64,000 bases of DNA from assembly GCA_016125095.1 (NCBI GenBank), contig WGMK01000010.1, positions 74,343 to 138,342 of the forward strand, read 5' to 3'. This stretch comes from Candidatus Hydrogenedens sp. Lineage in GTDB: Bacteria > Hydrogenedentota > Hydrogenedentia > Hydrogenedentales > JAEUWI01. This document shows, piece after piece, positions 3,901 through 15,690 of the stretch (position 1 is the first letter of the stretch; every line of letters begins with the position of its first letter). A program made the translations under genes and the position numbers. The notes beneath the pieces are model-generated. The model was not told where the DNA came from and made no database searches. It saw only the letters and a program-made list of their open reading frames with translations.

Positions 3901-5150
3901 TCGACGGCCAATGCGCTGCCCAGTTCGGCGGCGTTGTCCGCGGTCAGGCGCTCTTCGAGGTCCCAGTTGGAGCCGCTTCGCTTGAATACATGCGCGCTAC
4001 CGGAGGTATCGCCCAATAAGCCGGCGCGCGGCGCGCCTGCGATTATTGTGCTTTCGTCGAGCGAGACGGAAAAGCCCAAACGGTCGCCAATGGAAGCCCC
4101 GGGCGAAACTGCGCGCTGTTGAAGCTGCCAGCTATCCGTCAGGTAAATGAAAACCGATACCGAACCGGCGCCATCGAAGGGAGCTGCCACGGCAATGGTC
4201 GTGTCTGTAAGCGTGACGCTGCTGCCGAAGCGTGATGCGGCCTCGGTGCCGGTGGGCAAGAGGATTTGTTCTTCGGAAAAGACGCCGCCACTCCGGCGGA
4301 AAACGTACGCGGCACCACCATCGGAGTCATTGCCCGACGCTCCGATCACGGCAAGGTCATTGGACAGGTCCAGCGATTCACCGAAGAAATCGAACGTGTC
4401 TGCATCGCTCGCCGTAAGTTTCTGGTCTTCGCTCCAAGACGAGCCAGCGCCGGTGAACACATAAACATTGCCCTGCCGCACGTTCTTCTGGCTTGCCCCT
4501 GCGAGAATCGTGGTGCCGGAAAGGGCCACGCTGCCGCCAAAGGCATCGCTCACCGAACCGTCGGATGCCGTCAGTTTCTTTTGCTCTGTCCAGACACCGC
4601 CGCTTCGCGTGAATACATAGGCGGCGCCGCGCTGGCTGGCATCGCCGGAGGCGCCTGCGACGAGCGTATCGCCCTCAATGCTCACACTGATTCCGAACCG
4701 GTTTCCCCCGCTACCGTCGCTCGCGGTGAGCACTTGCTGGAGTACCCATTCAAAGCCATCCCGGATGTACACATACACCTGGCCCGGTGCCGTGGGAGTC
4801 CCAGCGGCTCCCACTACAATCGTGGTATCGGTAAGGGCGACGCTGGTACCAAGGGATGTCAGCGTATCGGCATCGGAATCGAAGAGCTTCTGCTCCAGCG
4901 CCCAACTCGCTCCAGTCCGCAGAAAAACGTATGCAGCCCCTTCGCCCGAGAGTACGCTATCCTCGAAGGGGGCCCCGACAACGGCCCGGTCGCCCGCAAT
5001 CGCCGTGCTATACCCGAATTGATCGAAAGCCCCCGGATAGATTCCGCCGATCGCTTGTGTCTCTGTTTGCGTCACCGCAAGTGCCGGTACTGCAAATGCC
5101 GCAATAGCAACCAGGACCATGCATGTGAATGAAGCGCGCGGGATTCTCAT
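909..5150 (-). CDS. Giant secreted FG-GAP (integrin-alpha-like) repeat protein, 1413 aa. N-terminal signal peptide, about 13 repeats ending in GAAYVF, EGEGEG linkers, a possible cohesin-like beta-sandwich, a dockerin/EF-hand-like pair, and a C-terminal CxxCH (PSCyt1-like) motif
   Basis: ATG at 5150 with GAGAGG upstream. Signal peptide MRIPRASFTCMVLVAIAAFAVPALA. Recurrent FGxSVAL..GDTL.IGA...GAAYVF units. Low-complexity EGEGEG runs. DINQDGLLDLSELLRIIQFFN and DWMLSLSELLRAIQFFN segments. YCSGCHIGSTFGGLDLTD near the C-terminus. Confidence 0.85.
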   Translation of the reverse strand: MRIPRASFTCMVLVAIAAFAVPALAVTQTETQAIGGIYPGAFDQFGYSTAIAGDRAVVGAPFEDSVLSGEGAAYVFLRTGASWALEQKLFDSDADTLTSLGTSVALTDTTIVVGAAGTPTAPGQVYVYIRDGFEWVLQQVLTASDGSGGNRFGISVSIEGDTLVAGASGDASQRGAAYVFTRSGGVWTEQKKLTASDGSVSDAFGGSVALSGTTILAGASQKNVRQGNVYVFTGAGSSWSEDQKLTASDADTFDFFGESLDLSNDLAVIGASGNDSDGGAAYVFRRSGGVFSEEQILLPTGTEAASRFGSSVTLTDTTIAVAAPFDGAGSVSVFIYLTDSWQLQQRAVSPGASIGDRLGFSVSLDESTIIAGAPRAGLLGDTSGSAHVFKRSGSNWDLEERLTADNAAELGSALAVDGDTLAIGAPSEASRGVVYVYLRSGESWDFQARIAAADSTHAQGFGRSVALSGDTLAIGATADDDNGENAGAVYVYTRSGVAWSLEQKLTASDGAAVDLLGTGLALEGDTLIAGANAADAGQPNAGAAYVFTRDAGVWTEQQKLTLDSPGFQDGFGFRVALAGDIAAISAPNRDEEFFDTGGVYIFERIGGTWALSQRAIIEDPATSTKLGQDVALSGNTLIFTTTDAEATGVNSGAAYVFVNCNGNWIQQQKLVPDAGKQVFEFGTSVALLGDTALVGAYRSDGADNTSGAAYVFSRSAGTWTPGDELDASDGVALDRAGWDVALTTDEAAMGAPYHKTVGRRSGAVYIYDVAAAPPVEGEGEGSPTCPLAEGEGALDGEGSAPYRVDLIADIENRLIASEFGGDALAARTYVTAVLDEAAAIILRDLNIEVNVCQIVAWSTPSPFEVTSGTEPDASTTLDAYRNFNLSERSDATTHLFHDFSPALVSYGATASLAFVGQPCTGSAMVTVRQDAAFPLSGGSIDVLSAARSIATNLGATAGQDDTIMASSFTDATPLVFNATTLAQIDAVLENVTCPVNIDCGLATEGEGEGLTDGEGQPEGEGVVDGEGMVDGEGAMDGEGGGALPSLIASNGSTDGGIAINADLQGAEIQVLGFDLVFDPNVLEFGGASISPTLNGQGKGIQSFPVSAGRIGIVITDSSQTPNLIGDGLVCLVSMLPGANAIAGNSYTLGIENASGFVPGSSTVTLTGVSGQVLVPLPIEGEGEGSPDGEGQGGGEGQVDGEGSGDVLFSSADINQDGLLDLSELLRIIQFFNADGFACAETQLPGEDGYVIGFDESAQQCTPHTGDYNPRDWMLSLSELLRAIQFFNNLGYHVECGTEDGFAAGPGTDAPCVGPTSADVQVVMNNYCSGCHIGSTFGGLDLTDVNAVVSQPSSNAEMLRITPGSLENSYLWRKLEGTQALVTGGSGEQMPLGGTIEGEDLDIISAWILADAPV

Positions 5151-8882: not shown

Positions 8883-10928
8883 CTACGCCGTCTGGGGTTT
8901 TTTCGTCTTTCCGTGGTGGCCGGATTCCGGATTCGCCGCCGCGCGTTTGGGCAGCAGCGTATCGCCCATCAGCCACAGCGCGAATCCGGCCAGCAGCACG
9001 ATGCCCTCGAAGCCCCAGAAGAGGAAGAGGTTGAACCACACGCCCTTCACGAAGCCGTAGGAGTGCAGGCCCACGCCGAGGTTGTTCACGCCCCACCACG
9101 AGAAGGTGACGATGATGGCCATGATCACGGCGCCCATGTTGATGCCGAGCTCCTTGATGTAGCCGCCCATCTTGGCGTGCAGCACGCAGAGGCTCCACAG
9201 GCAGATCATCAGCGCGCCGTTCTCCTTGGGGTCCCAGCCCCAGAAGCGGCCCCAGCTGTCGTTGGCCCAGATGCCGCCGAGAATGGTGCCCACCACGGAG
9301 AACAGCAGCCCGAAGCAGAGCACGCCGTAGGTCATCTTGGTCACGTTCTGGTAGAACTTGCGGTCGGCAATCCGGATGCGCAGCACGCGTCCGATGATGT
9401 AGATGTGCGCGATCGCACCCGCCAGCATGCCCGCGGCGTAGCCGAAGGTCACGGTGGTCACGTGGGTCGACAACCAGAAGTTGGTGTCGAGCACGGCGAT
9501 AAGCGCGGGCATGGTATCCACGCCTTCCTTCATCTCGTAGCGGTTCGCGAGGAACATGCCCGCCGTGCCCAGCACGGCTGCCAGCGCAATTACGATGCGC
9601 TCCTTGTTCATCCATTCGATGATGAGCGCCGTCGCCACCGAGCACGCCGTGATGAACAGCACCGTCTCGTACAGCGTCGATACCGGCGGCCGCTCGCGGA
9701 TGATGCAGCGGATGGTGATACCGACGATGAGCAGGATGGTCGGAACCAGCACGGAGGCCTGCGTCGCATAGCGCCACCAGCGGTTGTACGGGAACACCCA
9801 CGAGAGCGCCACGATGAAGAAGGAAATCAGGTACAGCACCTGGCTGTTGGGAATCCACTTCATCCGGTAGAAGGAAACCTCCAGCGGCACCTTGTCGTAC
9901 TCGCCGCGCAGGCTGGCCGCGGCAGTCACCTTGCTGTGGAATTGCGCGGCCATCTTCTTGAACGCGTCGCGGTCGTTCACGAGCCCGGGCAGACGCTCGA
10001 GCAGACCAAGCATCTCGATGGGATTGTTCGAGGCCGCGTCGAGGTCCCGCACGTTGAAGGCGCGCGTGGCCATATCGGCCGGGGTCATCCAGGCCTGCTG
10101 GCTCGGCTCGGGGGGCGGAATCAGCGCCATGCCGTGGGTCGGGTTCAAGACGAATTCCAGCTCGTCCATCACACCGGCGATGGCCTTCGCTTCCTGGTTT
10201 ACCCGTTCCGGCGTCAGGCTGGTGCCCTCTTCGCGCAGCGCCTTCAACACTTCCGGCGCGCGCATCAGCAGCATGCTCAGGCTCGCGCCTCCGCGGTCGG
10301 TCAGTGCCGCGCCCATCGCAGAATCGGCCGGCGCCGTGTACGTGCGCCGCGCGAAATCGAAGTAATGCAGAATCTGATCGTACTGCAGGAAATTCTCGGC
10401 GAGATTGATGATCTGCTGCTCGACCGTCGTGCGGTCCGCCTGTTCCTTCTGGCGGTAGGCGTTGTCGAGCTCGAAGAGCTTCTGCGCGCCCTTTGCGATT
10501 TCGTTGTACGAATAGCGCGCGCGCTTCTTGTCGCCCGGGTCGATGCCGATGGCCGCCACGGCCTCGTAGTTGTCCACGATGAACTGGTGGTAATCCGCCG
10601 CGATTTCCGGGTAGAAGAGGCTGTACAGCAGCCAGGCAACCGGCTCTTTGATCTTGCCTTCCTCGCCCAGGTCGAGCGACCACTTGCCGTTGATCTTCAG
10701 CAGCGCGAAGCGGGCATAGGTATCCAGCGGCTTTACGCGGCCGCCGTCCTGCACCGGCAGCGTGGCGAACAGGTCCAGCGTCTCCTGGTCCCAGGGTTCG
10801 TAGGTAACGACCTTCGGGGCGGCATCGTCCGCGCTCGCGGCATCGTCCGCCGCCGGGGCGTCTTGCGCCAGAGCGCTGCCGGCGCAGAGCAGGCCCAGAA
10901 CTACAAGGGCGTGACTAAGCTTTTTCAT
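8883..10928 (-). CDS. ccsA: Cytochrome c biogenesis protein CcsA/ResC (System II) with an unusual N-terminal signal peptide plus a periplasmic domain of about 330 aa
   Basis: WGRFWGWDPKENGAL tryptophan-rich WWD motif and multiple TM helices. Signal peptide MKKLSHALVVLGLLCAGSALA. ATG at 10928 with AAGAGG upstream. Confidence 0.8.
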   Translation of the reverse strand: MKKLSHALVVLGLLCAGSALAQDAPAADDAASADDAAPKVVTYEPWDQETLDLFATLPVQDGGRVKPLDTYARFALLKINGKWSLDLGEEGKIKEPVAWLLYSLFYPEIAADYHQFIVDNYEAVAAIGIDPGDKKRARYSYNEIAKGAQKLFELDNAYRQKEQADRTTVEQQIINLAENFLQYDQILHYFDFARRTYTAPADSAMGAALTDRGGASLSMLLMRAPEVLKALREEGTSLTPERVNQEAKAIAGVMDELEFVLNPTHGMALIPPPEPSQQAWMTPADMATRAFNVRDLDAASNNPIEMLGLLERLPGLVNDRDAFKKMAAQFHSKVTAAASLRGEYDKVPLEVSFYRMKWIPNSQVLYLISFFIVALSWVFPYNRWWRYATQASVLVPTILLIVGITIRCIIRERPPVSTLYETVLFITACSVATALIIEWMNKERIVIALAAVLGTAGMFLANRYEMKEGVDTMPALIAVLDTNFWLSTHVTTVTFGYAAGMLAGAIAHIYIIGRVLRIRIADRKFYQNVTKMTYGVLCFGLLFSVVGTILGGIWANDSWGRFWGWDPKENGALMICLWSLCVLHAKMGGYIKELGINMGAVIMAIIVTFSWWGVNNLGVGLHSYGFVKGVWFNLFLFWGFEGIVLLAGFALWLMGDTLLPKRAAANPESGHHGKTKKPQTA

Positions 10929-12135
10929 GAGACTGCCTCTTCTTCTGCGCGCGCAGGTAAATCGCGAGCCGTTGCAGAAAGTGGATGGTAAGCCCGATAC
11001 CGATGATGTAGCAGGCGTACTTGGGCCATTGGTCCGCAGGGTTCTTCACCACGGAGAACACCGACGCGATCGGCGCGCGCGGATTGGTGGGGTCCTCCAC
11101 GAAGGAGGCCTGGAAGAAGGTGAATCCCTTGTGGCGGAGCGGTTCATTCATCTTGATTTCGACATCGCGCGAGGCATTGCCCTCGGTCATCGTCACGCGG
11201 CTTTCGAAATTGCTGGCCATGCCCGTGCGCGGGTGCTTCTGGTGGATGAACTTGTTCAGGGTAATCCGGAACGGCACGGGGAAGCGGTCATGCCGTAGGT
11301 CGATGGCGTAGCGCTGTCCCTGCACGGTCACGATCCACGGTGCCGCGGCCATGCCCCAGAGCAGGCCCACATGCGCGTCGCCGCCCTGCATCGTCGAAGC
11401 CGCGCCATGCGCCGAAGCCGCCGCGCCCGAGGCGTCCGCCGGGCGTTCCATCACCGTGGCGATCACGCCGGCCAGGTTGCGCTCGGCATCCTTCTGCATT
11501 TCCATCGGCTGCAGAATGACGCCGTCCACGCCCATCGCCATGATGGGCGGGGTCTGCTGCGGGGCGCAGTTGGGCATGTAGCCCTCAAGCAGCAGCGTGA
11601 AGGGCAGTTTTTCGGCGAAGAACGTACGGGTGTCCGAGGGGCCCATGTGCACGAATTCCTCGCCGGGAATCGTATAGGTCATCGGCGGGTCGGTGTCGAG
11701 CGAGACGATCTTGATGTTCCAGTCGTAGTAGCTCTGGAAGTGGTCGTCGCTTTCGCCCTCGTACAGGGTCATATGGCCGCTGGTCGAGAACTCATAGGTG
11801 ACGAAACCCGACACCAGCAGCAGCAGAATGCCGCCGTGGGCGATGAGCATGCCCGGCCGCGTCCAGCTCTTCGGCGCGCGCACAATGGCGCCGAGCGACA
11901 TGTTGATGAACAGCAGCACCATCAGCAGGTACACGCCGGGCAGCGGCAGGTGGAACCAGTCGTTGAATTCGTGAATCACGAACACCGACTCGAAGTACTT
12001 GCGCTGCACCTCGTAGAGGCCGGAGTCCACCTGCTCGATGGTACCGAAGAAGGTCAGCAACAAAAGGAAGAACAGCAGCACGCAGGCCAGGCCGTACGAG
12101 GCAAGGAAATTGACTACTCGTTTCAATATGTGCAC
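10915..12135 (-). CDS. ccsB: Cytochrome c biogenesis protein ResB/CcsB (System II)
   Basis: GTG start at 12135. N-terminal TM helix, large periplasmic domain and C-terminal TM helices, with ResB-like similarity. Overlaps ccsA by 14 nt. Confidence 0.75.
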   Translation of the reverse strand: MHILKRVVNFLASYGLACVLLFFLLLLTFFGTIEQVDSGLYEVQRKYFESVFVIHEFNDWFHLPLPGVYLLMVLLFINMSLGAIVRAPKSWTRPGMLIAHGGILLLLVSGFVTYEFSTSGHMTLYEGESDDHFQSYYDWNIKIVSLDTDPPMTYTIPGEEFVHMGPSDTRTFFAEKLPFTLLLEGYMPNCAPQQTPPIMAMGVDGVILQPMEMQKDAERNLAGVIATVMERPADASGAAASAHGAASTMQGGDAHVGLLWGMAAAPWIVTVQGQRYAIDLRHDRFPVPFRITLNKFIHQKHPRTGMASNFESRVTMTEGNASRDVEIKMNEPLRHKGFTFFQASFVEDPTNPRAPIASVFSVVKNPADQWPKYACYIIGIGLTIHFLQRLAIYLRAQKKRQSHEKA

Positions 12136-12168: not shown

Positions 12169-13377
12169 TTAGTGTATCGAGGCGCAGAACGCGCGGAAAT
12201 TGTCCCGCTGCGCCGCAACTTCGGCTTCCGGTCCGACCATCTTCACAAAGAGCGCCTGCGCATCCGTCACGCGCGCGGTGCCCAACATCATATAGCCCGC
12301 CGAGGCGCCCCCGCTCATCCCGGTATATTCGCCTGTGATTTCGATAATCGGCGAGGGCACGCCCGCGATATCCACGGTTTCGAGGGCCGCGATGGCTGCG
12401 CTGTCCAGCGCGGGCTGCCCCATCTGGCCGCGCCAGCGGTTCAGATTTGATTCCAAGCCGCCGCCCGTGCCGCCCAGAACCGCCACATAGCACTCGGTGT
12501 TCGGGCTGATATTGAACGTAACCGAACGCATCGGGCGGTCGCCGGCATTTTCCCAGCCGGCTGGCACTTCGTATTGCACGTTCGATGCGTCGATGGAAGC
12601 GCCCGAGCCCGACGGTTCCATGCCCGCTTCCGGCACCGGGGGAGTAGTCGGCTCCACCGCCGGGGTCGCCGGCGACGCCGCGGCCGCTGTAGCGCTCAAT
12701 CCGCCGGATTCCATAATGGACTGACAGAACTCATTGAATTGCGCCAACTGGTCGGCGAGCACGGCCTTCGGGCCGGTCATCTTCACAAAATAGGCACGGC
12801 CCTGGTCGATAAGAATCAGGCCGTACATCATGTAATCCGGCGCGGCCTCGGTACCCATGCCGGTGTAGGCCCCCTCGTACATGAGGAACTTTGCGCTCTT
12901 GAGCAGCAGCGGCTTTTCGGGAATCGCTCCCACCTGATCGTCGGTAATCGGCTCCAAGCCGATCTGGCGTCGCCACCGGTTGATGTTTTCGGTCAGGCCG
13001 CCGCCATCACCAGGCAGCACGGTGAAGTAGCACTCCGCCTCGGGGTGTCCCGAAACCTGCAGGTTGGCCAGGCGCATGCTCGTGGGAGCAAGTTCTTCCC
13101 ATCCCGACGGTACCTGCCAGGTGAACTCCGGCGCGGAGGAATCCGCACTCATGTCGCCTCCGGCCATCGGCGCGGCGCCCATGCCGGGCTTCACGTCGCC
13201 CACCTGAATGGGCTGTAGCCGCATGCGGTCCATCGTGCTCATGTCGCGTGCGGCCGTTTCTTCGCCGTTGGCCGGCCGCACGTCGGTGATTTCCTGTGTC
13301 GGCGTGTATTCTTTGCTGCAGCCGAAGGGAAGCGCTGCGAGCAGAACAAGACTACAAATAATTCGGAATTGTCGCAT
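12169..13377 (-). CDS. Lipoprotein with an internal tandem duplication (two domains of about 110 aa), at the head of the ccsB-ccsA operon
   Basis: Internal ATG at 13377 (MRQFRIICSLVLLAALPFGC lipobox). The duplicated units are ..TWQVPSGWEELAPTSMRLANLQVSGHPEAECYFTVLPGDGGGLTENINRWRRQIG.. and ..QYEVPAGWENAGDRPMRSVTFNISPNTECYVAVLGGTGGGLESNLNRWRGQMG.. Confidence 0.65.
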   Translation of the reverse strand: MRQFRIICSLVLLAALPFGCSKEYTPTQEITDVRPANGEETAARDMSTMDRMRLQPIQVGDVKPGMGAAPMAGGDMSADSSAPEFTWQVPSGWEELAPTSMRLANLQVSGHPEAECYFTVLPGDGGGLTENINRWRRQIGLEPITDDQVGAIPEKPLLLKSAKFLMYEGAYTGMGTEAAPDYMMYGLILIDQGRAYFVKMTGPKAVLADQLAQFNEFCQSIMESGGLSATAAAASPATPAVEPTTPPVPEAGMEPSGSGASIDASNVQYEVPAGWENAGDRPMRSVTFNISPNTECYVAVLGGTGGGLESNLNRWRGQMGQPALDSAAIAALETVDIAGVPSPIIEITGEYTGMSGGASAGYMMLGTARVTDAQALFVKMVGPEAEVAAQRDNFRAFCASIH

Positions 13378-13634
13378 TACCAGACTCCTGACCCGGCGAG
13401 GGTATCCCGCTGAACAATGGCGGGTCTTCTGTAGATATTCGCCGCACATCTTTAATGGTGTCGCGGACACTCGGTAAGTCTACTCAGCGTCGGCGCTAGG
13501 GTGCAACGTAAACAGGCTTTTCAAGTGTTTACAGCGCGACGCATTCCTTCAAGGGCGTGATCCGCAGTTTCCATTAGACGCGGTCCGCTTTGGCGTGCTT
13601 ACAAGACCGCGTAACCCCGGCGAGGGTGTCGTTG

Positions 13635-13640
13635 TATACT
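13635..13640 (+). promoter_or_regulatory. Candidate -10 element (TATACT) for the graspetide precursor, about 22 nt upstream of the ATG; GGAGG SD at 13650-13654
   Basis: gttgTATACTgcaataaccGGAGGtaactgccATG. Confidence 0.35.
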
Positions 13641-13662
13641 GCAATAACCGGAGGTAACTGCC

Positions 13663-13836
13663 ATGAAGCGAACCAAACCGCTCACGAAACGCTTGTTCAT
13701 CGAGGAACTCGAGACCCCGCGACCGGCCGATTCGGGCATCGTGACGACGCTCGCCATCGGCGAAGAATGCGACAAGGGCGACAGCAAGGGCATCGTGACC
13801 ACGTTCGCGCTCGGCGAAGAGTCCGAACTCAGCTAG
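13663..13836 (+). CDS. Graspetide (omega-ester-containing RiPP) precursor peptide, plesiocin-like group 2: leader with an LFIEELE motif and two TTxxxxEE core repeats (57 aa)
   Basis: MKRTKPLTKRLFIEELETPRPADSGIVTTLAIGEECDKGDSKGIVTTFALGEESELS. Strong SD GGAGG 8 nt upstream. This ORF is absent from the ORF track because it is under 60 aa. Its stop lies 3 nt before the ATP-grasp start. Confidence 0.7.
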   Translation: MKRTKPLTKRLFIEELETPRPADSGIVTTLAIGEECDKGDSKGIVTTFALGEESELS

Positions 13837-13839
13837 CGC

Positions 13840-14769
13840 ATGCCGGGTTCAGATTCCGGCGCGGTATGGCTGTTCGGCGGCACGGGCGATGCGCAAGTGC
13901 TGCGCGTGGCGTCCGCGCTCAAAGCGCTGGGCAGCCGTCTGGTGCTGTTCGATACGGCCGCGTTTCCGGAGCAGGAACGCTGGAGCCTGTCGCTCGACGG
14001 ACTCCATGTTGCGGGTGCGCTGGTGCCGTGGCCGCGCTCGGTGTATGTGCGCGGCCTCGCCTGCCATGCCCTGATGCCGTCGCTGGAAGAAACGCTGTTG
14101 AAACATCCCCGGCGTGTGGTCGCAGCGATGGAAGAGAAGCGCGCGTTCTTGCATTCTCTGCTGCTGATAGCCCGGGACCGCGGGGCCCTGCTCGTGAATT
14201 CCCCGGAGGTCAATGCCCAGCACAGTCGCAAGCCTTACCAGCTGGCGCTGTTCCGGACCGCCCAATTGCCGGTGCCGGAAACCCTTTCGACGAACGACCC
14301 CGATCTCCTGAAGGCCTGGCTGCAGGACATTGGTGCGGCGGTTTACAAGCCGCTGGCCGGCGGCGCGACCGTGGTACGGGTGTCCCCGGAGGACGTGTGC
14401 GAGGAGCGGCTTTCAGCGCTCGACGCGGCCCCGGTGTTGTTTCAGCAATTGATTGAGGGCGTGCCGGTCCGCGTCTATGTTGTCGGGGGTGCTATTGTGG
14501 CGGCGGCCGAGATTCATTCAAAGGAACTGGATTACCGTCGCGGCGAGGAGGCCGTCGCACCGACGCAGCTTACGCCGGAAGAGACGGATATCGCAGTCCG
14601 GGCGGCGGCTGCAACGCACATGCCGTTCAGCGGGGTCGATTTGATACGGGCGGCAGGCAAGACCTGGCTGCTGGAGTGCAACCCCTCGCCGATGTTCGCG
14701 GCCTTTGAACTGAAGACCGGACTCGATGTGGCCGGACCGCTGGCCCGCCTATTGGCGGGCGCATCCTGA
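13840..14769 (+). CDS. RimK-type ATP-grasp ligase; predicted graspetide macrocyclase
   Basis: 309 aa with ATP-grasp fold features (VYKPLAGGATVVRV, LFQQLIEGVPVRVYVVGG, GVDLIR...WLLECNPSPMF). Directly follows the precursor. Confidence 0.75.
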   Translation: MPGSDSGAVWLFGGTGDAQVLRVASALKALGSRLVLFDTAAFPEQERWSLSLDGLHVAGALVPWPRSVYVRGLACHALMPSLEETLLKHPRRVVAAMEEKRAFLHSLLLIARDRGALLVNSPEVNAQHSRKPYQLALFRTAQLPVPETLSTNDPDLLKAWLQDIGAAVYKPLAGGATVVRVSPEDVCEERLSALDAAPVLFQQLIEGVPVRVYVVGGAIVAAAEIHSKELDYRRGEEAVAPTQLTPEETDIAVRAAAATHMPFSGVDLIRAAGKTWLLECNPSPMFAAFELKTGLDVAGPLARLLAGAS

Positions 14770-14831
14770 ACAAAGAGCGGGGCCGCCCCGCGAATCGGGA
14801 CGGCCCCGGCGTGGTCAATTATTCGGTCGCG

Positions 14832-15116
14832 TTATGCGCAGCAGGCCGCGTCGGCCGTGCAGCATTCAGCCTTCGGAGCGTCGCAGCAGGCCGAAGCCGG
14901 GGCGCAGCAAGCCGCGTCGGCAACACAGCAATCGGCGGCGCTGGCACTGCAGCAGGCCGTCGCGCAGGCATCGGCGCAGCAGTTACCCGTGCAGTTGCAT
15001 GCCGCACAGGCGCAGCTTGCGCCGCAGCAGTCGCAGCTGGCCGAACCGGCCCACGCAAAGCCACCCAATACGGCCACGGCCGCGAACACGATGGAGAGAG
15101 CTATCCACTTTTTCAT
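14832..15116 (-). CDS. Secreted Cys-rich mini-protein (94 aa; mature part about 71 aa with 22 Cys and CC/CxC motifs)
   Basis: Signal peptide MKKWIALSIVFAAVAVLGGFAWA followed by GSASCDCCGASCACAACNCTGNCCADACATACCSASAADCCVADAACCAPASACCDAPKAECCTADAACCA. Confidence 0.45.
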   Translation of the reverse strand: MKKWIALSIVFAAVAVLGGFAWAGSASCDCCGASCACAACNCTGNCCADACATACCSASAADCCVADAACCAPASACCDAPKAECCTADAACCA

Positions 15117-15240
15117 GGTAGGAACCTTTCGTCGTTCCGCATCGCAATGCGGGAGTTGTTGAAATCAAAGCCAGGTTTCGGTGGGGGATGCGCCGGAATT
15201 TCCGCAGTCGGAACAGCGGTCCGGGCGCATCAAGGCTTTG

Positions 15241-15690
15241 TCAACAACGGAAACGCGAAAGGACAGTACAGCGCTCGGCACTGGTGCAGCCGGACGTAAA
15301 GACCGGCATTACGACGGTACGTTCCGCCGGCAGCGCGATGGCAGGAGCAAGCGCGACCATGCTGAGCGGCGCGCTTTCCTGCGACACGATGCTGCGGTTG
15401 CGGTCGGGCAAGGTCGCCGGGTCCGCACCATCCGAGGATTTCATACTGCAATGGCAGGACGACGCGTGGGCGGTTTCGACACCCTGAGGGGCATCGCAGC
15501 AGGAGGAGGTGCGCGTTGCTTCCTCTGCAGGTGCAGAGCAACAGGAGCTTTCAGCAGAGGTGGCGCATCCGGAGCAACTGCTTTCGACCGCGCAGGCATC
15601 GCCGCAGGCGCACGCCGCTGCATGCAGCGGAGCGCCTACCATGGCCAGTACCATGGCGAGTGCAGCCATCCATCGGGTCGTGTTCAACAT
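15241..15690 (-). CDS. Secreted Cys-rich protein 2 (149 aa), tandem with the previous gene
   Basis: Internal ATG at 15690 with AGGAG upstream. MLNTTRWMAALAMVLAMVGAPLHAA signal peptide, then ACACGDACAVESSCSGCATSAESSCCSAPAEEATRTSSCCDAP...SSCHCS. Confidence 0.45.
   Translation of the reverse strand: MLNTTRWMAALAMVLAMVGAPLHAAACACGDACAVESSCSGCATSAESSCCSAPAEEATRTSSCCDAPQGVETAHASSCHCSMKSSDGADPATLPDRNRSIVSQESAPLSMVALAPAIALPAERTVVMPVFTSGCTSAERCTVLSRFRC

Follow-up and report, generated by a model that had tools for sequence, protein, structure and literature searches.

The two adjacent genes described here, located in the window (the whole 64-kb stretch of DNA that was analysed), belong to a Candidatus Hydrogenedens MAG and very probably constitute a cassette for the biosynthesis of a plesiocin-type graspetide (group 2). 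Those features of a group 2 system that can be tested are all present: the TTxxxxEE core motif, the leader motif, an adjacent PsnB-type ligase, the leader-binding pocket of this ligase and the equivalents of PsnB Arg72 and Arg213. By analogy with plesiocin, the product is most likely a peptide carrying two bicyclic Thr-Glu ester hairpins with a total of four esters, corresponding to a mass change of -72 Da. The locus is an ordinary further example of a known graspetide family.

The first gene is a small ORF that runs on the plus strand from an ATG at 13663 to a TAG at 13834-13836 and encodes a 57-aa peptide, MKRTKPLTKRLFIEELETPRPADSGIVTTLAIGEECDKGDSKGIVTTFALGEESELS, as read from the sequence. 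A GGAGG element at 13650-13654 lies 8 nt 5' of its start codon. Only the trinucleotide CGC separates its stop codon from the ATG of the second gene, a 309-aa ATP-grasp ORF on the same strand (13840 to 14769), and given this 3-nt spacer the ligase is probably translationally coupled to the precursor. The ORF, its distance of 3 nt from the ATP-grasp gene and the Shine-Dalgarno element had all been described in an earlier, sequence-only reading of this DNA and could be read back from the sequence without change. The same reading had proposed TATACT as a -10 element; the hexamer is indeed found at 13635-13640, but its role as a promoter was not borne out, since a sigma-70 consensus scan of positions 13300-15300 returned neither a promoter-like site nor a -35/-10 pair, with a consensus that may not suit this phylum. 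On the 3' side, a scan for terminator-like structures detected a hairpin of 13 pairs, 12 of them G-C, at 14778-14808, with its T-tail on the minus strand, and the ORF beyond it is convergent, on the minus strand. The hairpin and the convergent ORF 3' of the ligase thus delimit a unit of two genes. In NCBI, the record of the MAG seems to lack an annotation for the precursor; the identical 57-aa peptide was found only in a Logan assembly, the ligase being present in NCBI. The ligase matches a protein of a "Candidatus Hydrogenedens sp." MAG with 100% identity. The elements of the locus are as follows.

13635..13640, plus strand: TATACT, weak candidate -10 element (from the sequence)
13650..13654, plus strand: GGAGG ribosome-binding site (from the sequence)
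13663..13836, plus strand: graspetide precursor gene, 57 aa, with a leader of approximately residues 1-27 followed by two cores (ORF, homologues, coding pattern)
13693..13710, plus strand: leader recognition motif LFIEEL, residues 11-16, counterpart of PsnA2 LFIEDL at residues 14-19 (motif scan)
13744..13767, plus strand: core 1, TTLAIGEE, with T28, T29, E34 and E35; predicted esters T29-E34 (inner) and T28-E35 (outer) (motif scan, PsnA2 analogy)
13798..13821, plus strand: core 2, TTFALGEE, with T46, T47, E52 and E53; predicted esters T47-E52 (inner) and T46-E53 (outer) (motif scan)
13840..14769, plus strand: PsnB-like ATP-grasp macrocyclase, 309 aa (PDB phmmer, AF2, Foldseek, NCBIfam)
14778..14808, no strand assigned: GC-rich hairpin between the ligase stop and the convergent gene, 3' end of the two-gene unit (terminator-like scan)

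When all six frames of the 64-kb window are searched, TTxxxxEE is matched exactly twice and LFIE[DE]L once, in each case within the 57-aa ORF. Chance occurrence was assessed with 200 first-order Markov simulations of the window, which contained on average 0.2 TTxxxxEE motifs and in no case (0/200) two of them in one ORF. The two cores and the LFIE(D/E)L-like leader singled out by the sequence-only reading are therefore the only such motifs in the window, and the literature confirms their roles: in PsnA2 the LFIEDL segment is the leader recognition element needed for PsnB binding and TTxxxxEE constitutes the core (bioRxiv 10.1101/2021.03.09.434688). Neither Pfam nor NCBIfam gave a meaningful match for the precursor, and no GG site is found ahead of its cores.

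A protein search with the 57-mer retrieved 14 homologous peptides of 51-79 aa, six of which probably share contigs with ligase homologues, as judged from coinciding "longest contig" lengths (6901, 10812, 35922, 45044, 1367 and 3235). In the alignment of these peptides (A1), residues L11, I13, L16, E17 and P19 of the leader are invariant, as are T28, T29, G33, E34 and E35 in core 1 and T46, T47, G51, E52 and E53 in core 2, while the spacers and the C-terminus are variable. A comparison of 11 orthologous small ORFs yielded 1584, 909 and 747 differences at codon positions 3, 1 and 2, respectively, together with 899 synonymously differing codon pairs; judged from these alignments, the excess at position 3 is what a translated gene evolving under purifying selection would show.

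Conservation of the pair was followed in 80 loci obtained from a scan of one genome per species, 29 of which are of the Hydrogenedentota type. The sequence-only reading had made its case dependent on whether the small ORF is conserved beside ATP-grasp homologues, and this is what was found: in 25 of the 29 Hydrogenedentota loci a small ORF with the signature K(R)LFIEELERP...TTxxxxEE is present just 5' of the ligase gene. No precursor was found in the remaining four, namely within 1.5 kb in L011, L019 and L023, and in L003 within the mere 238 nt of upstream sequence that this locus offers. Most loci from other phyla likewise contain a TTxxxxEE ORF directly 5' of the ligase, with 1-8 cores, and the pair occurs in Streptosporangium and Pseudonocardia (Actinomycetota), Paenibacillus, Planctomycetota, Omnitrophota, Melainabacteria-type and other genomes. 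In a neighbour-joining (NJ) tree, the ligases of the Hydrogenedentota form a monophyletic group whose members share 40-60% identity with the window ligase, compared to 29-46% for ligases of other phyla and 35% for PsnB.

These data also speak against the earlier suggestion that the presence of only two cores, a Cys residue and a short overall length make the precursor a distinct variant. Among the 25 Hydrogenedentota precursors, 19 have two cores and six have one; Paenibacillus and Streptosporangium loci, too, commonly encode precursors of 47-70 aa with two cores, and the Cys that follows core 1 in the window peptide is Ser in most relatives.

The minus strand upstream of the pair carries the gene of a 433-aa protein without Pfam match and the ResB/CcsA cytochrome c biogenesis genes; downstream follow two Cys-rich ORFs, a xylose-isomerase-like TIM barrel and a ThuA-like protein, the latter two being separated by an ORF which, from its sequence, is presumably a phosphoglycerate mutase. 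A ferredoxin-like ORF is seen near the pair in six related loci of the clade.

When ten neighbours from the window were compared by tblastn with the 80 loci, the precursor alone recurred. All-against-all clustering of the flanking ORFs in the 29 clade loci recovered only the ligase, antisense shadow ORFs, the precursor and the ferredoxin-like ORF as recurrent elements. No NHLM-type or peptidase-containing transporter is encoded within +/-4 kb in the 29 clade loci, and a crude regex screen of the ORFs of at least 150 aa in the 64-kb window did not detect the ABC signature LSGGQ. Since no neighbour recurs and the window lacks an ABC signature, the minimal two-gene system is real, and it holds across the clade. 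The absence of an adjacent protease, transporter or acetyltransferase, as initially noted for this locus, thus extends to its relatives. Group 2 clusters often, but not obligatorily, co-occur with NHLM-type peptidase transporters.

The way the cassette would operate can be proposed from the plesiocin system. The 57-aa precursor would be translated from its own strong ribosome-binding site and the ligase probably by coupling. The LFIEEL motif of the leader would then dock into a hydrophobic pocket of the ATP-grasp enzyme, and this binding would activate the ligase. On each TTxxxxEE core, ATP would serve to phosphorylate a Glu side chain, the phosphate being subsequently displaced by a Thr hydroxyl. 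In PsnA2, ring formation follows the pattern T32-E37, then T31-E38 (bioRxiv 10.1101/2021.03.09.434688). By the same rule the inner esters, linking the first Glu of the EE pair to the second Thr (T29-E34 and T47-E52), would form first and the outer ones (T28-E35 and T46-E53) second, so that the final product would contain two ring-within-ring hairpins with all four esters.

The constrained loops, with Leu30 and Phe48 at the variable third core position, may, by analogy with plesiocin, serve as bait to serine proteases of the chymotrypsin or elastase type; plesiocin inhibits elastase with a Ki of 16 nM and chymotrypsin with a Ki of 7.5 nM. An engineered plesiocin variant, named LLLR after its core residues, gains trypsin inhibition, which implies that the variable third core residue would set protease specificity; on this analogy Leu30 and Phe48 would suit chymotrypsin- or elastase-like enzymes. 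What the analysis itself establishes is the structure of the two genes, their motifs, the conservation of the pair and the homology and fold of the enzyme; the chemistry of the cross-links, the order in which the rings close and the role as a protease inhibitor are inferred from plesiocin.

For this last role an alternative has to be considered. The peptide might be made as described without serving as an exported inhibitor; it could remain intracellular with the leader uncleaved and target endogenous proteases, or fulfil some other function. Such an outcome, which we consider possible but unlikely, would fit with the pair being the sole conserved feature in the 29 clade loci, with no peptidase or exporter linked to it, and with the lack of an ABC signature in the regex screen. 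The N-terminus of the leader, MKRTK, is moreover nearly invariant in the Hydrogenedentota clade, whereas PsnA2 can do without its first 12-13 residues (bioRxiv 10.1101/2021.03.09.434688). Against this, the characterised graspetides in the literature covered are protease inhibitors, plesiocin fragments inhibit without further tailoring, and exporter or peptidase genes may reside elsewhere in the genome.

The enzyme can be compared with PsnB residue by residue. To this end the numbering offset of the PsnB chain in the PDB was set to 20, upon which 10/10 named residues match. In PsnB, a pocket formed by Tyr171, Ile193, Leu196, Val201 and Phe203, together with Arg192, takes up leader Phe15, Arg181 pairs with leader Asp18, and the core is held by Arg72, Arg213 and Arg101 of the neighbouring subunit (bioRxiv 10.1101/2021.03.09.434688). 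In the window ligase, the counterparts of R72, Y171, R192, I193, L196, V201, F203 and R213 are R71, Y169, R190, L191, L194, V199, F201 and R211, respectively; seven of these leader-pocket and core/catalytic residues are therefore identical and one is an Ile to Leu exchange (L191). With the exception of L191 they are all invariant in a 33-sequence alignment (A2), and so are the ATP-grasp hallmarks YKPxxGG, GVD and ExN.

The match is not complete, since Arg181 of PsnB is replaced by Val179 and Arg101 by Glu98. Arg101 reaches the outer-ring Glu from the neighbouring subunit and is described as a conserved residue of group 2a enzymes alone (bioRxiv 10.1101/2021.03.09.434688), so that this group 2a marker is missing from the window ligase. 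Within the Hydrogenedentota clade the Arg101 position is occupied by Asp or Glu in 22/28 sequences and by Arg in 2/28, whereas 47 of 49 relatives from other phyla keep it as part of an R-E-R motif. In PsnB, the R101A exchange makes core binding weaker, yet ATP consumption and macrocyclisation can largely do without Arg101 (bioRxiv 10.1101/2021.03.09.434688). Because turnover thus largely survives this exchange, we read the loss of Arg101 as a minor divergence and not as evidence against activity.

It could be argued that the Hydrogenedentota pairs form a functionally distinct subgroup within group 2, either as leader-bearing intracellular protease regulators or with a core recognition altered with respect to PsnB. 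The traits that would suggest such a subgroup are the monophyly of the ligases, the loss of Arg101, the conserved MKRTK...LFIEELERP leader and the absence of a linked peptidase or exporter; even so, we regard this reading as rather improbable. The true clade-specific differences are small and come down to the lost Arg101 and the missing transporter or peptidase.

One possible consequence of the lost Arg101 contact would be that the same pair yields something other than the plesiocin pattern, i.e., a single ester per core, another ring order, or links between the cores. The clade-wide replacement of Arg101 by acidic residues, at a position kept in nearly all relatives from other phyla, and the weaker core binding of PsnB R101A would be in line with such an outcome. 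However, PsnB R101A still consumes ATP and macrocyclises, the core TTLAIGEE shares its AIGEE segment with the core bound in the PsnB paper, and neither the two Thr nor the two Glu of either core vary among the clade precursors, which argues that all four are used. A deviating connectivity is accordingly very improbable, and two bicyclic hairpins per peptide remain the preferred prediction.

PsnB also emerges as the closest relative when the ligase is considered as a whole. Pfam assigns to it the generic RimK-like ATP-grasp domain PF08443 alone, and in public databases the protein is named "ATP-grasp domain-containing protein" or "glutathione synthase/RimK-type ligase-like". Its best and sole full-length match in NCBIfam is TIGR04187, ATP-grasp ribosomal peptide maturase (SAV_5884 family), for which residues 21-305 align to positions 14-311 of the 312 of the model with 99.8 bits, a score that does not reach the curated cut-off of 350 bits. 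The RimK models score below their cut-offs and on the C-terminal part only (TIGR00768, 83.5 vs 143.4; NF007764, 52.6 vs 331), and the microviridin ligase models are also below theirs (TIGR04185, 44.6 vs 425; TIGR04184, 38.5 vs 475). Among PDB entries, phmmer places PsnB (7DRM) at the top with E=1.2e-51 over ligase residues 9-305, RimK reaching E=1.3e-14 over residues 138-304 only and MdnC E=5.5e-5.

The predicted fold leads to the same assignment. An AlphaFold2 model of the ligase, computed with an input alignment of 33 homologues, has a pLDDT of 93.8 and a pTM of 0.90. In a Foldseek search of the PDB, PsnB chains occupy all of the first 15 places, with TM values of 0.81-0.90 and E-values down to 1e-32 (TM 0.89 and E ~1e-32 for PsnB, compared to TM 0.70 and E ~1e-17 for RimK). 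The graspetide macrocyclases PruB, AMdnB, MdnC and CdnC follow as a second tier with E ~1e-20, and RimK and LysX come only after them, with TM values of ~0.70. The sequence-only reading had asked whether the ATP-grasp protein would group with RimK or with graspetide macrocyclases and had called the locus plesiocin-like; with PsnB as the closest solved relative by both sequence and predicted fold, both points are settled in favour of the latter enzymes. The view that the ATP-grasp protein, like RimK, ligates glutamate to the C-terminus of a protein and that the small ORF is a chance frame would account for the Pfam assignment and the generic public names, but can be rejected as extremely improbable in view of RimK models that stay under their cut-offs, a RimK alignment confined to the C-terminal half, the far greater closeness of PsnB in sequence and fold, and a small ORF that is conserved, motif-bearing and under coding constraint. 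A microviridin-type system was likewise rejected on account of the low scores with TIGR04185 and TIGR04184, the MdnC E-value and a precursor devoid of a TxRxPSDxDE core.

With this locus, Hydrogenedentota, to our knowledge a candidate phylum without known cultured representatives, are added to the hosts of plesiocin-type graspetides. No mention of Hydrogenedentota together with graspetides was found in the searchable literature or in the available supplements of two large graspetide surveys, a body of text with incomplete coverage. The cassette opens no new question, as the chemistry, the enzyme mechanism and the family have already been described. It is, however, short enough for direct synthesis and co-expression, and it would offer a compact two-hairpin scaffold for the engineering of protease inhibitors.

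Among known systems, the pair most resembles PsnA2/PsnB of Plesiocystis pacifica (7DRM/7DRN/7DRO/7DRP). Common to both are TTxxxxEE cores with the AIGEE segment, the LFIE(D/E)L leader and a single PsnB-like ATP-grasp gene that adjoins the precursor. Over its full length the window ligase is 34-35% identical to PsnB, its predicted fold matches that enzyme with a TM of 0.89, and it keeps both the leader-pocket residues (Y, R, L, V, F) and the equivalents of Arg72/Arg213. In contrast, PsnA2 has four cores and the window precursor two, and the leader carries Glu where PsnA2 has Asp18, the partner of this residue, PsnB Arg181, being Val, and Arg101 being Glu. Furthermore, the window pair comes from another phylum, where its ligase belongs to a monophyletic clade of its own in the NJ tree.

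The Rheinheimera RcpA/RcpB pair, a group 2 graspetide system verified by co-expression, provides a second point of reference, as it likewise combines a TTxxxxEE precursor with a single ATP-grasp ligase, which is sufficient there for all dehydrations (PMC11626197). It differs in that RcpA/RcpB lie inside a multi-BGC locus and are accompanied by RcpC, a transporter whose peptidase domain cuts at a GG site (PMC11626197), no such gene being found near the window pair. More distant are the group 1 microviridins (MdnA/MdnB/MdnC), which share the enzyme superfamily, leader-guided side-chain macrocyclisation and, for MdnC, a similar fold (TM ~0.8), but which use a TxRxPSDxDE core, two ligases, and a lactam in addition to lactones (bioRxiv 10.1101/2021.03.09.434688). 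No core of that kind exists in the window precursor, and at the sequence level the similarity of MdnC to the window ligase is weak. Finally, RimK, the poly-glutamate ligase of ribosomal protein S6, has the C-terminal ATP-grasp domain PF08443 in common with the window ligase, but its N-terminal domain is unmatched there and we know of no precursor peptide encoded next to it.

On either side of the PsnB-like ATP-grasp macrocyclase gene and its TTxxxxEE precursor, the following minus-strand ORFs are found, none of which gave a match in the Pfam scan:

12169-13470, minus strand: 433-aa ORF with two internally similar halves
14832-15116, minus strand: Cys-rich ORF of 94 aa
15241-15813, minus strand: second Cys-rich ORF, with stretches such as AACACGDACAVESSCSGCATSAESSCCSAP

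The halves of the 433-aa ORF read ...VPSGWEELAP...ECYFTVLPGDGGGLTENINRWRRQIG... and ...VPAGWENAGD...ECYVAVLGGTGGGLESNLNRWRGQMG..., and this ORF is directly adjoined by ResB/CcsA cytochrome c biogenesis genes (8883-12135). The 94-aa ORF has an N-terminus resembling a signal peptide; the roughly 70 residues after it consist almost entirely of Cys, Ala, Asp, Ser and Thr, with some 25 Cys among them. The product may be a secreted protein, either metal-binding or disulfide-rich. This ORF was not seen adjoining graspetide loci elsewhere (80 loci, tblastn). The second Cys-rich ORF lies directly upstream of it.

Among the ligase loci of our scan, which used one genome per species, six related ones (L010, L012, L013, L014, L018 and L041) carry, at a distance of about 1 kb on the downstream side of the ligase, a small ferredoxin-like ORF with CxxCxxCxxxCP motifs. 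This ORF is absent from the window locus. Three Hydrogenedentota ligase homologues (L011, L019 and L023, the ligase match at position 4001 in each) lack any ORF for a TTxxxxEE precursor within 1.5 kb; their precursors may be located elsewhere, or these ligases may be orphan enzymes.

Residue mapping onto PsnB, the plesiocin macrocyclase of Plesiocystis pacifica, places one position of the window ligase opposite Arg101 of the R-E-R motif:

about 14131-14133, plus strand: Glu98 of the window ligase, counterpart of PsnB Arg101

Across the Hydrogenedentota ligase clade (loci L001-L028 and L041) this position is mostly Asp or Glu (22 of 28 sequences), and the Arg of PsnB is kept in nearly all ligase relatives of other phyla.
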